A stretch of DNA of 64,000 nt from an uncultured Actinomycetota bacterium (GCA_963743915.1 CAVURN010000003.1:256001-320000); one strand, 5' to 3'. Positions 15,408-19,097 are shown, counted from the first letter of the stretch. Translations and numbers: made by a program. The notes: generated by a model from the letters alone, not told the origin.

Positions 15408-16406
15408 TCAGGGACGGACGAGGGTGCGGCCGGTGTTGGCGCCGGCGAGCACGTCGTCCAAAGCAGCGGGCAACTGGTCCAACGACACCTCGCGCGAGCC
15501 GATGTCGTCCAGCCCCCGCGGGCGCAGATCGGTGGCGATCCGCTGCCAGACCGCGCGCCGCTGCTCGATCGGCATCTGCACTGAGTCGACGCCCAGCAGC
15601 GCGACGCCGCGCAGGATGAACGGGAACACCGTCGTCTCCAGCCCGATCCCGCCGGTGTTGCCGGACGCGGCAACGGCGCCGCCGTACTTCAGCGTCCGCA
15701 GGATGTACGGCAGCGTCGACGCGCCCACGCAGTCGACCGCGCCCGCCCAACGCTCACGGTCGAGCGGCTTGCCGGGACCGGACGTCTCGTCGCGCCCGAG
15801 GATCTCGGCCGCGCCCAGCTCCTTCAGGAACCCTTCGGCGTCCGCCTTGCCGGTGGACGCGGCCACCTCGTACCCGCGCTCGGCGAGGATGCCGACCGCC
15901 ACCGAGCCCACGCCGCCGGTCGCGCCGGTCACCAGCACCGGACCGTCAGCCGGAGTGAGGCCGCGCTGCTCCAGCGCATGCACCGACAGCGCCGCGGTGA
16001 ACCCGGCCGTTCCGATGACCATGGCCTGCCGCGTCGTCAGCCCAGCGGGCAGCGGCACCAGCCACTCCGACGGCACGCGCGCGTACTGCGTGAAGCCACC
16101 GTGATGGGCGACGCCGAGGTCGTAGCCGTGCGCGATCACCTCGCTGCCGACCGCGAGCCCGGACGTGCCGGGCTCGACGATCTCGCCGGCGAGATCGACA
16201 CCCGGGATGATCGGGTCGATCCGCGCGACCTTGCCGTTCGCCGTCGAGGCAAGCCCGTCCTTGTAGTTGACGCCGGACCAGTGCACGCGGATCACCGCGT
16301 CGCCGTCGCCGAGGTCGTCGACCGTGAGCTGCCGCACCTCGCGGACAACGATGTCGCCGTCGCGCTGCACGATGAGGGCGGAGAAGGTGGCGGGAACGCT
16401 CGACAT
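15408..16406 (-). CDS. acuI: YhdH/AcuI family MDR oxidoreductase (acryloyl-CoA reductase-like)
   Basis: SGVNYKDGL, PGVDLAG, HHGGFTQYARV, IGTAGFTAAL, VTGATGGVGS, FPFILRGVALLGVDSV. Confidence 0.85.
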   Translation of the reverse strand: MSSVPATFSALIVQRDGDIVVREVRQLTVDDLGDGDAVIRVHWSGVNYKDGLASTANGKVARIDPIIPGVDLAGEIVEPGTSGLAVGSEVIAHGYDLGVAHHGGFTQYARVPSEWLVPLPAGLTTRQAMVIGTAGFTAALSVHALEQRGLTPADGPVLVTGATGGVGSVAVGILAERGYEVAASTGKADAEGFLKELGAAEILGRDETSGPGKPLDRERWAGAVDCVGASTLPYILRTLKYGGAVAASGNTGGIGLETTVFPFILRGVALLGVDSVQMPIEQRRAVWQRIATDLRPRGLDDIGSREVSLDQLPAALDDVLAGANTGRTLVRP

Positions 16407-16548
16407 CAAGAGACTCCAAGGCTCGGGGACCTGCCCATCCTCACCGAACCCGACCCGCGCGCCAACACACAGAGTGTCGCGTCATCGGTGCGACGTCGCG
16501 ACACATTGCCGCTGTCCGACGTGCATGCGCACCGACCACCCTTGCTGG

Positions 16549-18696
16549 ATGGACGCCACAGCCAGCACGCACGAGCGGATGACCGCGACGCTGCGGCCAC
16601 TCTCGATCGCCGTCGTCGGCGCCAGCCCCCGCTCGTTCGCCGGACAGGTCGTCCAGCAGAACTGCGCGGCGCACCGGTACGAGGGACTGATCGTCCCGGT
16701 CAACGGCAAGTACGCCGAGATCGCCGGCATTCCCACCATCGCGACGCTGAGCGAGCTCGACACCGCCCCGGATGCGGTGGTCGCCCTCGTCGGGACGTCC
16801 CGCGTCCAGGCGATCGCCGAGGAGGCCGCGGCCATCGGGGCGGGTGCTGTGATCGTGCCGGGTGGAGGTTTCACCGACTCCGGTGGGGCGGCGAACGACC
16901 TGGCCGCGTCCCTGTCGACCCTCGCGGACGTCACCGGCATCTCCATCGTCGGACCCAACTGCATGGGCGTCGTCGACCTGGTCAGCGGAGCCATGCCCTA
17001 CATCGGCACCGTCCCCACGGACGTGCGCCGCGGTCGAGTCGCCGCGATCGCGCAGAGCGGTGCAGTGATCGAGGCGTTGGTGAACTGCGGTGGACGCGTC
17101 CCGTTCTCCACGCTGGTCAGCAGCGGCGGCGAGGCCGTCACGACCACGGGGGACTACCTGCGCTTCTTCGCCGCCGACCCCGAGACCGACGCGGTCCTCG
17201 TCTTCATCGAGGGATTCGTCGACGCTCAGGACGTCCTCGCCGCCGCGCGCGAGGTCGCCGAGGCCGGCAAGACCGTCGCTGCGTGCTTCGTGGGTCGCTC
17301 AGCCAAGGCACGCGACGGCATCCTCGCCCACTCCGGCAAGCTGGCACCGAGCGCTCGCGTCACCGCCGCCGCGCTGCGTCAGGCCGGCGTGGTGCTCGCC
17401 GACGACCTCGACGAGCTCATCACCCTGGGCGAGATCTTCGGCACCGGACGCCACGTGCGTGGAACTCGCACCCATGTCGTCACCAACTCCGGTGGAGAGG
17501 CGAACCTGCTCTCCGACCTCGCCGAGGACGCCGGCCTCGAGCTGCCCGACCTGACCGGGGCCGCCACGTCGCTCCTCGCAGCCCGGTGGCCGGCCTTCCA
17601 CACCGCGAACCCGCTCGACCCCTGGGGGGTCGACGACTACCCGGCGGTCTACCCCGTGGCGATCGATGCCGTCGCCCGCGAGGACGGCGACATCGTCATC
17701 GTGTCGCAGGACCAGCAGGCGACCGCCGGTGACTACGAACGACAGCTGGGGCTCGACCTGGCGCAGTACCTGGTCGACGCCACTGCCGGTCGCGGTGCGT
17801 TTCCGGTGCTGCTGAGCCCGACCAGTCAGGACCCGGACCCAAGACTGACCGACCTCTGCCGCGCGCACGACGTCGCGCTGCTGCGCGGCGCGCGCGGTGC
17901 GTTGCGCGCACTCGGTTCGCTCGCGCGTCGAACGCCTCCGACACGCGTCGTCCACCGCACGCCGCCACGCATCGCAGCGATCGTCGACGGCCTAGAGCTC
18001 ACGGAGGACGTGGCACTCGACATCCTCGGCGACTGCGGCGTCCAGACGCCGCGGCAGTTGCGCGTGGCGACGCCGGAAGCGGCCGTCGCGGCGGCCGCCC
18101 AGCTCGGTGGCCCGGTGGTCGTCAAGGCTGTCGCCGACGGGCTGCTGCACAAGAGCGACCTCGGCCTCGTCGTCACGAACGTCGTCAGTGCCGACGCCGT
18201 ACAGCTCGCCGCCCGCGAGGTGCTGTGTGCGGCGTCCACCGCCGGTCTGTCCGTCGAGCTGCTCGTCGTCGAGCAGATCACCGGAACGCTGGACGTCGTC
18301 GTCGGCTACAAGCGCGACCCGCAGTTCGGCCCCACGACGGTCGTCGGACTCGGCGGCGTCTGGGCCGAGATGCTGGACGCGGTCAGCGTGCACGTCGGAC
18401 CGCTCGACCTCGACGGTGCGCACCAGCTGCTCAGCGACAGCCAGGTCGGCCGCATGATGCGCGAGGCCCGTGGGGGCGTACTCGACGTCGACGCGGTGGC
18501 GCGCGCTCTGGTCGCCGTCACCGACATCGGTCTGGCCCACCCCGAAGTCGTCGGCATCGACGTCAACCCGATCATCGTCAGCCGCGACCGCGCCGTCGCC
18601 GTGGACGCCGTCATCGAGCGGGCGACCACCCCCGAGCCGCACCACCCCGTCGCACCCGCGACATCCATCACCCTCACCCAAGGAGCAACACCGTGA
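16549..18696 (+). CDS. ADP-forming acyl-CoA ligase (acetate--CoA ligase family, fused CoA-binding and ATP-grasp domains)
   Basis: [27 protein letters not shown] (phospho-His), [29 protein letters not shown]. Start uncertain. Confidence 0.88.
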
Positions 18697-19097
18697 CCAG
18701 CGAGATCACCTCCACCTTGCGTATCCGCATCGGGCAGGAGGAGGCGCACTACGGCGGCAACCTCGTCGAGGGTGCGCGCATGCTCAAGCTCTTCGGCGAC
18801 ATCATCACCGAGATCGCGGTCATCACCGACGGGGACGAGGGCCTGTTCGTGGGCTACTCGGACATCGAGTTCACCGCGCCGGTGTACGCCGGGGACTTCA
18901 TCGAGGCGACCGGCCGGGTCGTGAAGATCGGTAACACCAGCCGCACGGTCGAGTTCGAGGCGCGCAAGGTGATCGCATCGCGCTACGACCTCACCCCCAG
19001 TGCGGCGGACGTGCTGAAGGAGCCCGTCGTCGTCTGCCGCGCCACCGGCACGACGGTGATCCCCCGGGAGCACAGCCGCAAGAACCCCGACGCCTGA
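18693..19097 (+). CDS. kal: Hotdog-fold aminoacyl-CoA ammonia-lyase (Kal / beta-alanyl-CoA ammonia-lyase family)
   Basis: [74 protein letters not shown] overlap with the ligase stop. Confidence 0.85.

Follow-up and report, generated by a model that had tools for sequence, protein, structure and literature searches.

A conserved ligase, ammonia-lyase and reductase gene trio in Actinomycetota and Chloroflexota: a candidate coenzyme A-dependent module for beta-amino acid deamination

Introduction

DddX of Psychrobacter sp. D2 turns 3-dimethylsulfoniopropionate (DMSP), a cationic 3-substituted propionate, into acryloyl-coenzyme A (acryloyl-CoA) through the CoA ester in an ATP-dependent reaction, performing the elimination itself and feeding its product towards AcuI (PMC8163506; statements drawn from papers cited by PMC number refer to excerpts of those papers). 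In Clostridium (Anaerotignum) propionicum, a beta-alanine CoA-transferase provides the CoA ester from which the Acl1/Acl2 lyases eliminate ammonia, and in the beta-valine pathway of Pseudomonas sp. SBV1 an ATP-dependent CoA ligase, BvaA, activates beta-valine, with minor activity on 3-aminobutyrate and beta-alanine, before the CoA-dependent ammonia lyases BvaB1/B2 deaminate it (PMC4619459). Here we analyse a stretch of 64,000 nucleotides from an uncultured Actinomycetota bacterium (GCA_963743915.1, CAVURN010000003.1:256001-320000), referred to as the window, in which the genes for a DddX-related acyl-CoA synthetase, a Kal/Acl-type ammonia-lyase and a YhdH/AcuI-family reductase lie side by side. 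Together their products would release ammonia from a small beta-amino acid, on balance probably beta-alanine, and deliver propionyl-CoA.

The locus combines features of these systems in a way that sets it apart from each. DddX carries out ligation and elimination in one protein; here elimination would fall to a second protein, an ammonia-lyase whose gene is coupled to that of the ligase, and the trio is accompanied neither by a BCCT transporter nor by a dddB/dddC-type row. The lyase belongs to the same family as Acl1/Acl2 and would likewise act on a CoA ester; the activating enzyme is an ATP-dependent ligase of the ADP-forming type instead of a CoA-transferase. C. propionicum reduces acryloyl-CoA with a complex of flavin enzyme and electron-transferring flavoprotein, whereas the reductase of the trio is an MDR-type NADPH enzyme, and the carriers of the trio are, we assume, aerobic-type soil lineages, unlike C. 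propionicum. With the beta-valine pathway the locus shares the order of events, ATP-dependent ligation of a beta-amino acid followed by CoA-dependent ammonia elimination, but the PaaK-like AMP-forming ligase and crotonase-fold lyases of that pathway are unrelated to the proteins studied here, and the excerpt gives it no enoyl-CoA reductase (PMC4619459).

Results and discussion

Gene arrangement of the trio

Base composition in the window is 66-73% G+C, and real reading frames were picked out by third-position GC. The genes of the trio are as follows.

15408..16406, minus strand: YhdH/AcuI-family NADPH enoyl-CoA (acrylyl-CoA) reductase, protein P0003, 332 amino acids, ATG at 16406
16550..18696, plus strand: DddX-related NDP(ADP)-forming acyl-CoA synthetase, proposed beta-aminoacyl-CoA ligase, 715 amino acids
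16579..18696, plus strand: shorter form of the ligase, protein P0001, 705 amino acids from the ATG at 16579
18693..19097, plus strand: Kal/Acl-type hotdog aminoacyl-CoA ammonia-lyase, protein P0002, 134 amino acids, coupled to the ligase via GTGA

An earlier reading of the window alone (the original prediction) had described a ligase translationally coupled to the lyase by a GTGA overlap, with the reductase divergent across about 140 bp. Both features are borne out: the ligase stop codon TGA (18694-18696) overlaps the lyase start codon GTG (18693-18695), preceded by the Shine-Dalgarno motif AAGGAG, and the divergent gap measures 143 bp from the ligase start at 16550, or 172 bp from that at 16579. 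The start at 16550, giving 715 amino acids, is the likelier of the two, because ATG-GAC-GCC at this position is kept in four related loci (alignment with L012-L015) and the closest ligase homologues in a protein search are 717-734 amino acids long. Proteins of this kind presently carry generic names in the protein databases searched ('acetate--CoA ligase family protein', 'acetyltransferase', 'hotdog domain protein').

Conservation of the trio

A scan with the lyase, taking one genome per species, returned 80 loci (L012-L091), onto each of which the window proteins and the proteins of the lysine pathway were mapped; AcuI and lysine genes were sought within 10 kb. Twenty of these loci form a close set, with Kal at least 76% identical to the window protein (L012-L031), and 60 a distant set, mostly from Bacteroidota and Bacillota, with Kal 58-67% identical (L032-L091). 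In 19 of the close loci kal is immediately preceded by the ligase gene; at the twentieth, L031, no ligase was found. The ligase aligned in one piece in 17 loci and in three pieces in L023, and at L017 only its last 52 residues precede the contig end. AcuI adjoins the ligase-Kal pair in 15 of the 20, either divergent upstream, in nine loci of Actinomycetota (L012-15, L018, L027-30), or just downstream in the same orientation, in six loci of Chloroflexota (L019-21, L023, L025, L026). With two gene orders in two phyla, the linkage of AcuI to the pair has outlasted rearrangement.

The close loci are free of lysine-fermentation genes, none of them having KamA, Kdd, KamDE or BKACE within 10 kb. The distant set has a different make-up: 52 of its 60 loci are kal-kce-kdd-kamA-kamDE clusters and eight have neither context; AcuI and this ligase clade were found in none of the 60, and the three ligase-like matches there are 24-25% identical and on the opposite strand. 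The trio arrangement exceeds chance. Whether the trio would be conserved elsewhere had been put forward as a check on the original prediction, and it proves to be kept, in two gene orders, in both Actinomycetota and Chloroflexota and apart from the lysine-fermentation genes. A tree of 83 Kal sequences groups the copies from lysine clusters of Bacteroidota and Bacillota in a single clade (SH-aLRT 95) and places the ligase-linked copies on the opposite side, a split that coincides with phylum boundaries and is based on only 132 columns.

Species-level sampling shows a rare module of patchy occurrence. Of 401 genomes sampled evenly across the phylum, just two have the ligase and Kal genes next to each other: the window genome (G000) and G130, where a distant ligase (39% identical) immediately precedes Kal. 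Eleven of 13 congeneric genomes carry the window-type Kal; the six from sister genera and the 41 others from the class do not (the tallies for the 401-genome sample, the genus and class survey and the family f1 discussed below include some unpublished genomes, none of which supplies an individual locus described here). By record title, most carriers of the close loci are uncultured Actinomycetota and Chloroflexota known from metagenome assemblies, with a few isolates in Sinomonas, Modestobacter and Blastococcus; named carriers in protein searches include Sinomonas, Blastococcus, Modestobacter, Geodermatophilus, Rhodococcus koreensis, Nonomuraea, Pseudonocardia and Mycolicibacterium. These lineages presumably live in soil and fresh water and not in the sea.

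Some loci showed irregularities. The ligase appears in two or three alignment pieces in the loci L016, L022 and L023, all from metagenome-assembled genomes, and one window-type Kal (G430:C4:291568-291964) in two overlapping pieces; the split ligases and this Kal are frameshifts, from decay or assembly errors. Six loci of Ktedonobacteria (L039, L050, L052, L054, L056, L061) have a Kal 62-67% identical to that of the window with neither the ligase nor lysine genes nearby, adjoining instead an EF-G-like gene or a pyridoxal phosphate (PLP) enzyme.

The ligase is related to DddX

The ligase has the domain layout of the NDP-forming acyl-CoA synthetase (ACD) superfamily, with CoA_binding_2 (PF13380, 60.7 bits), Succ_CoA_lig (PF13607, 106.6 bits) and ATP-grasp_5 (PF13549, 152.8 bits) in one chain. 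A comparison with all solved structures gave DddX of Psychrobacter as the best match (7cm9; E 1.7e-81, 278 bits, residues 8-685), followed at lower scores by the Nitrosopumilus ADP-forming 3-hydroxypropionate and 4-hydroxybutyrate ligases (9y43, 8wzu; 188 and 185 bits), members of the same superfamily that act on polar-substituted C3 and C4 acids, and by PatZ-type acetyltransferases (138 bits). Identity to DddX is approximately 30% (204/678 by hand count), with 96% of the query covered. The DddX study accepted homologues at E < 1e-75, coverage > 70% and identity > 30% (PMC8163506), which places the ligase right at the edge of the identity threshold. Residues assigned to the DddX pocket were mapped onto the ligase by hand from the printed alignment, with the following outcome.

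DddX His292: window ligase His251 (in AHSG, the phosphohistidine), identical
DddX Tyr181: window ligase Tyr141, identical
DddX Trp391: window ligase Trp349, identical
DddX Glu432: window ligase Glu387, identical
DddX Asp208: window ligase Glu165, changed
DddX Phe435 (second cation-pi residue): window ligase Leu390, changed, Leu in all copies

The text of the DddX paper also writes residue 432 as D432 (PMC8163506). Wherever they are covered, all six positions show no variation among the window protein and 16 orthologues (in L016 the columns of Tyr141 and Glu165 fall in a gap), and the distant ligase of G130 has all six residues as well. Three paralogous synthetases encoded in the window genome keep only the His, plus Trp at that column in two, and the Nitrosopumilus ligases, unlike the window protein, have Gly and Val at the column of Trp391. 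With the DddX pocket residues largely kept, the pocket of the window ligase is apparently suited to a cationic 3-substituted propionate, a description that fits beta-alanine.

Two further ligase loci bring in other genes. In G130 (L092, C1 9862-13381) the ligase, Kal and an agmatinase-like ureohydrolase form a tight row. In G171 (L093, C45 900-8398) a ligase 36% identical to that of the window, with no Kal, stands in a row of aldehyde dehydrogenase, M24/creatinase-like protein, ureohydrolase, TetR, ligase and EamA exporter genes. In the window, too, an agmatinase-like gene is found, 6 kb upstream of the trio. These neighbours hint that guanidino or polyamine compounds might feed the ligase; across the 20 close loci, proximity to a ureohydrolase is not a conserved feature.

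The lyase and the reductase

The lyase scores 177.9 bits against NCBIfam NF052388, the 3-aminobutyryl-CoA ammonia lyase equivalog (cut-off 160). Its sole solved relative is beta-alanyl-CoA:ammonia lyase 2 (Acl2) of C. propionicum (4mtu/4mzq; E 6.7e-29, residues 12-129). It is approximately 62% identical to Kal of the lysine clusters, approximately 51% to Acl2 (60/118 by hand count) and 51% to the second Kal of its own genome. The family as a whole is tight, and similarity does not assign a C3 or a C4 substrate to its members. Across the 20 close loci the lyase is 76-94% identical and thus far more conserved than the ligase, at 48-58% outside the genus of the window genome.

Longer proteins containing a Kal domain (120 listed of 286 at E <= 1e-20) include fusions with BKACE/Kce, CoA-transferase and holo-ACP synthase. 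Gene fusions were considered as support for the pairing of ligase and Kal and rejected, as a singleton, P0124 (281 amino acids, ATP-grasp_5 plus 4HBT), is the only one among the 120 listed of 286 to join a ligase tail to Kal, and it is probably a read-through of the GTGA overlap. Three proteins of 289-316 amino acids (P0177, P0185, P0233) carry a Kal-like domain, approximately 60% identical over more than 90% of the query, together with a 4'-phosphopantetheinyl transferase domain; P0177 and P0233, from Saccharopolyspora erythraea and Streptomyces microflavus, are named holo-ACP synthase.

Against TIGR02823, the model of the YhdH/acrylyl-CoA reductase family, the reductase reaches 427.8 bits (cut-off 297.25), and it is the only protein of its genome above this cut-off. 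Its relatives of solved structure are 1xa0, YhfP (1tt7), AcuI (5gxe/5gxf, 291 bits) and YhdH (1o89), and it falls in the same MDR012 family as AcuI and YhdH; unlike AcuI, it is linked to the ligase-lyase pair and not to ddd or dmd genes. The YhdH/AcuI family has been tied to the detoxification of acrylate and acryloyl-CoA (PMC3338564, PMC4029986).

Relation to lysine catabolism

Kal is otherwise known from lysine fermentation, and the original prediction noted that the window has no lysine-fermentation gene. This holds for the 64-kb window, in which a tblastn search (E <= 1e-5) gave no match to KamA, Kdd, KamD, KamE or BKACE, but does not extend to the genome (90% complete, 2.9 Mb in 5 contigs). 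A lysine-type cluster is located outside the window on contig C2 (C2:262881-269928; L008:6881-13928), with a KamA-family radical SAM gene, Kdd (253 bits, cut-off 200), a 534-amino-acid protein without assignment, KamD (701 bits, cut-off 600), KamE (335 bits, cut-off 280) and a second Kal (184 bits), and an acyl-CoA dehydrogenase gene nearby. A canonical Kce was not confirmed in the window genome: one BKACE protein, on contig C1, scores 488 bits as a 3,5-dioxohexanoate:acetyl-CoA acetone transferase (cut-off 430) and falls under the Kce cut-off, and another, on C2, has an in-frame TGA and continues into a carnitine-dehydrogenase-like frame.

It had been recognised beforehand that a lysine pathway in the genome might account for the lyase. 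A cluster of that type is present, but as it carries a Kal of its own, 51% identical to the window protein, it does not explain the window lyase. The two copies also have separate distributions, the six sister-genera genomes keeping the C2-type Kal while missing the window type. Among 19 genomes that bear the ligase-Kal pair, KamD is full-length in five, including the nearest relatives of the window, partial in one (G406) and represented by weak partial matches of at most 115 bits in eight (G408-G415); no KamD match was found in the other five (G405, G407, G416, G418, G419). The trio is thus found both alongside KamDE and in genomes in which no KamD was found.

Proposed pathway

We propose that the trio converts a small beta-amino acid, of which beta-alanine is the likeliest, to a CoA ester, removes ammonia to give acryloyl-CoA and reduces this to propionyl-CoA by means of AcuI, a reading drawn from the sequences that we consider somewhat more probable than otherwise. 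By homology, the DddX-related ADP-forming ligase would form the beta-aminoacyl-CoA from the beta-amino acid, ATP and CoA via its phosphohistidine. The coupled Kal/Acl-type lyase, judged from its family, would then eliminate ammonia to leave a 2-enoyl-CoA, acryloyl-CoA in the case of beta-alanyl-CoA, and the YhdH/AcuI reductase, from its family and its conserved linkage, would use NADPH to turn the reactive enoyl-CoA into a saturated acyl-CoA. Propionyl-CoA could enter the methylmalonyl-CoA route encoded in the genome. The net yield would be ammonia and a usable acyl-CoA at the cost of one ATP converted to ADP, with neither a transaminase nor an amino-group acceptor. We infer the substrate, the direction of the reactions and ADP formation from these family relationships.

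Three considerations favour beta-alanine and a C3 pathway. An NADPH reductase of an acrylate-detoxifying family is kept with the pair; the nearest characterised relative of the ligase makes acryloyl-CoA from a C3 acid; and the genome can use propionyl-CoA, having three matches to methylmalonyl-CoA mutase, while in Sinomonas (L018) the trio is flanked by genes for a CoA-acylating methylmalonate/malonate-semialdehyde dehydrogenase (681 bits) and a PrpD/MmgE protein. The route from beta-alanine to propionyl-CoA that had originally been proposed therefore gains support for its C3 substrate from the relationship of the ligase to DddX. The lyase family does include an enzyme for beta-alanyl-CoA, Acl2; sequence similarity of the window lyase does not distinguish C3 from C4.

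Several observations weigh against this proposal. The lyase passes the 3-aminobutyryl-CoA equivalog and is nearer to lysine-cluster Kal than to Acl2, so that a C4 substrate is possible; among ten columns that split ligase-linked from lysine-cluster Kal, as compared with an Acl2 alignment by eye, it is Acl2-like only at 54 (Gly) and 85 (Thr). The reductase falls under the AcuI equivalog cut-off (NF051456, 358.2 against 440 bits). Within 10 kb, AcuI could not be found at L016, L022, L024 and L031 (L017 is cut by the contig end), nor does the trio have a beta-alanine transporter as a conserved neighbour. For the ligase, Trp at the column of Trp391 also occurs in two unrelated paralogues, and the roles of the DddX pocket residues were assigned by docking and mutagenesis, in the excerpt without a substrate complex (PMC8163506). 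Ligation of beta-alanine is not trivial, since none of ten acyl-CoA synthetases screened for the HOPAC cycle ligated it to CoA, according to the excerpt (PMC10266731). Finally, full-length KamD in five of the 19 pair-bearing genomes makes a link to lysine catabolism possible in some lineages.

Alternative readings

The same module and steps could serve 3-aminobutyrate (or 3-aminoisobutyrate), with 3-aminobutyryl-CoA giving crotonyl-CoA and ammonia, and then butyryl-CoA. The lyase score against NF052388 (177.9 bits, cut-off 160) and its greater identity to lysine-cluster Kal than to Acl2 (approximately 62% and 51%) would agree with this, as would the acceptance of both C3 and C4 hydroxy acids by the related archaeal ligases. 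However, a YhdH/AcuI gene is kept in 15 of the 20 close loci, and crotonyl-CoA is an ordinary intermediate of beta-oxidation which, to our knowledge, needs no dedicated NADPH reductase. AcuI enzymes are, as far as is known, highly specific for acryloyl-CoA, and the nearest characterised relative of the ligase acts on a C3 acid. The lysine pathway, moreover, forms 3-aminobutyryl-CoA directly, with no free 3-aminobutyrate in the scheme of the excerpt (PMC4619459). We therefore regard a C4 substrate as rather unlikely, though the most serious of the alternatives. Closer to DddX, the ligase clade could represent a second, non-marine DddX-type branch acting on 3-onium propionates (beta-alanine, N-methylated beta-alanines and DMSP) and itself cleaving good leaving groups, which we consider a doubtful proposition. 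Were it so, the clade would supply the DMSP lyase missing in dimethyl sulfide-producing Actinobacteria, the hotdog lyase would be an add-on that extends the system to ammonia, a poor leaving group, and DddX would derive from an older beta-amino-acid CoA ligase. More narrowly, the ligase could be a true DddX-type enzyme that both ligates and cleaves DMSP or another 3-onium propionate, AcuI removing the acryloyl-CoA and the hotdog protein merely buffering or side-processing it. The full-length DddX match (E 1.7e-81, approximately 30% identity) and the retention of the proposed catalytic base Glu432 and of Trp391, Tyr181 and His292 are compatible with such an enzyme, and dimethyl sulfide-producing Actinobacteria that lack all known DMSP lyase genes have been reported (PMC8163506). 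A self-sufficient DddX would, however, have no need of the coupled Kal/Acl-family lyase that is kept in 19 of the 20 loci; the cation-pi residue Phe435 is Leu in all copies; no BCCT/betaine-type transporter was seen among the scanned neighbours, the nearby permease being of the APC type; and the carriers, mostly uncultured Actinomycetota and Chloroflexota with a few actinomycete isolates, are presumably non-marine. This narrower version is improbable.

Two more alternatives run the ligase in reverse. ADP-forming synthetases are reversible, and the trio could form a lower branch of lysine catabolism in which the C2 cluster supplies 3-aminobutyryl-CoA to Kal, the reductase yields butyryl-CoA and the synthetase works backwards to butyrate and ATP. 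The genome does have KamA-like, Kdd, KamD and KamE proteins, and KamD is full-length in five of the 19 pair-bearing genomes. The C2 cluster, however, has its own Kal and a nearby acyl-CoA dehydrogenase; none of the 52 lysine clusters carries this ligase clade or AcuI; the pair occurs in five genomes with no KamD match and eight with weak partial ones; and the six sister-genera genomes keep the C2-type Kal without the window-type copy. We consider such a branch very unlikely. The remaining possibility is a PanD-independent source of beta-alanine for pantothenate, with acryloyl-CoA and ammonia giving beta-alanyl-CoA and then beta-alanine plus ATP. In its favour, a search of the window genome (90% complete) turned up PanC but no aspartate decarboxylase (PanD); among the carrier genomes G401-G420, PanD was found in only six of 20 and PanC in 18 of 20. 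PanD was likewise found in none of the 19 other genomes of family f1, from which we conclude that its absence is a trait of the lineage and not linked to the module; the six sister-genera genomes are without the window-type Kal too, so that the lineage has another source, and Geodermatophilaceae and Sinomonas hold both PanD and the trio. In Chloroflexota, moreover, a reductase that would destroy acryloyl-CoA stands in the same operon. After this family control (0/19 in f1; the six sister-genera genomes), the absence of PanD was rejected as a hint of a biosynthetic role as the main function, and we rate a reverse role the least probable of all.

Novelty and significance

Each of the enzyme families is known; new are their combination, activation by a DddX-related enzyme of the ADP-forming type and the spread in Actinomycetota and Chloroflexota. 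A literature search, with most subscription journals outside its coverage, found no description of the trio or of a CoA ligase for beta-alanine or 3-aminobutyrate. Such a ligase has been sought: the authors of the HOPAC CO2-fixation cycle, lacking one, resorted to a promiscuous CoA-transferase (PMC10266731). The ligase clade is a natural candidate for this activity, and would be ADP-forming and ATP-sparing. The source of acryloyl-CoA for AcuI/YhdH outside DMSP degraders is an acknowledged gap, for which beta-alanyl-CoA has been named, unverified (PMC4029986); the conserved row of ligase, lyase and AcuI would provide one. The trio also ties the DddX DMSP lyases to a larger clade in Actinomycetota and Chloroflexota, suggesting an origin for their ligase-plus-elimination chemistry, and would add a transaminase-free route of nitrogen release from beta-amino acids.

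Regulation and surroundings

Two further features of the locus concern its regulation.

13841..15274, plus strand (start uncertain, ~13841-13870): PucR-family regulator, convergent with the reductase
16407..16549: divergent intergenic region with inverted repeat, candidate operator

The frame of the regulator is backed by third-position GC, and the protein matches PmfR, a PucR-type activator, over its first 140 residues (83 bits). PucR-family genes adjoin AcuI in L018, L027 and L028, and one is also present at L016. The inverted repeat between acuI and the ligase gene (16474-16487 / 16491-16504; GTGTCGCGTCATCG / CGACGTCGCGACAC) has 14-nucleotide arms that are 86% complementary and a 3-nucleotide spacer, and the window and L012-L015 agree fully in its outer GTGTC...ACAC columns. 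A search for a sigma-70-like promoter in the divergent region gave no match, and a promoter and terminator scan gave nothing beyond chance. We infer that a PucR-type regulator and the conserved repeat, a candidate operator, probably control the module; possibly the regulator described here controls both the trio and the divergent permease operon upstream.

This upstream row, on the minus strand (8830-13672) and divergent from the regulator, encodes an APC-family permease, two short-chain dehydrogenases, the agmatinase-like ureohydrolase mentioned above and a polysaccharide-deacetylase/PuuE-like protein; in the closest relatives, L012-L015, the 10 kb upstream of the trio showed no such row. Downstream of the trio lie a UspA-like open reading frame (19151-19708), a HAD hydrolase gene and a gene for a TrpB-like PLP enzyme (20560-21924). 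The UspA-like frame has no Pfam match, and its Atlas neighbours are automatically named UspA or indole-3-glycerol phosphate synthase; together with the TrpB-like gene it is in synteny with the trio in L012-L015 only. Further upstream, a set of genes at 1891-7042, unrelated to the trio, encodes formate-dehydrogenase FdsD-like and Nuo51/NuoE-like proteins (flavin mononucleotide, 2Fe-2S) and is of the soluble formate dehydrogenase or NADH-dehydrogenase type.

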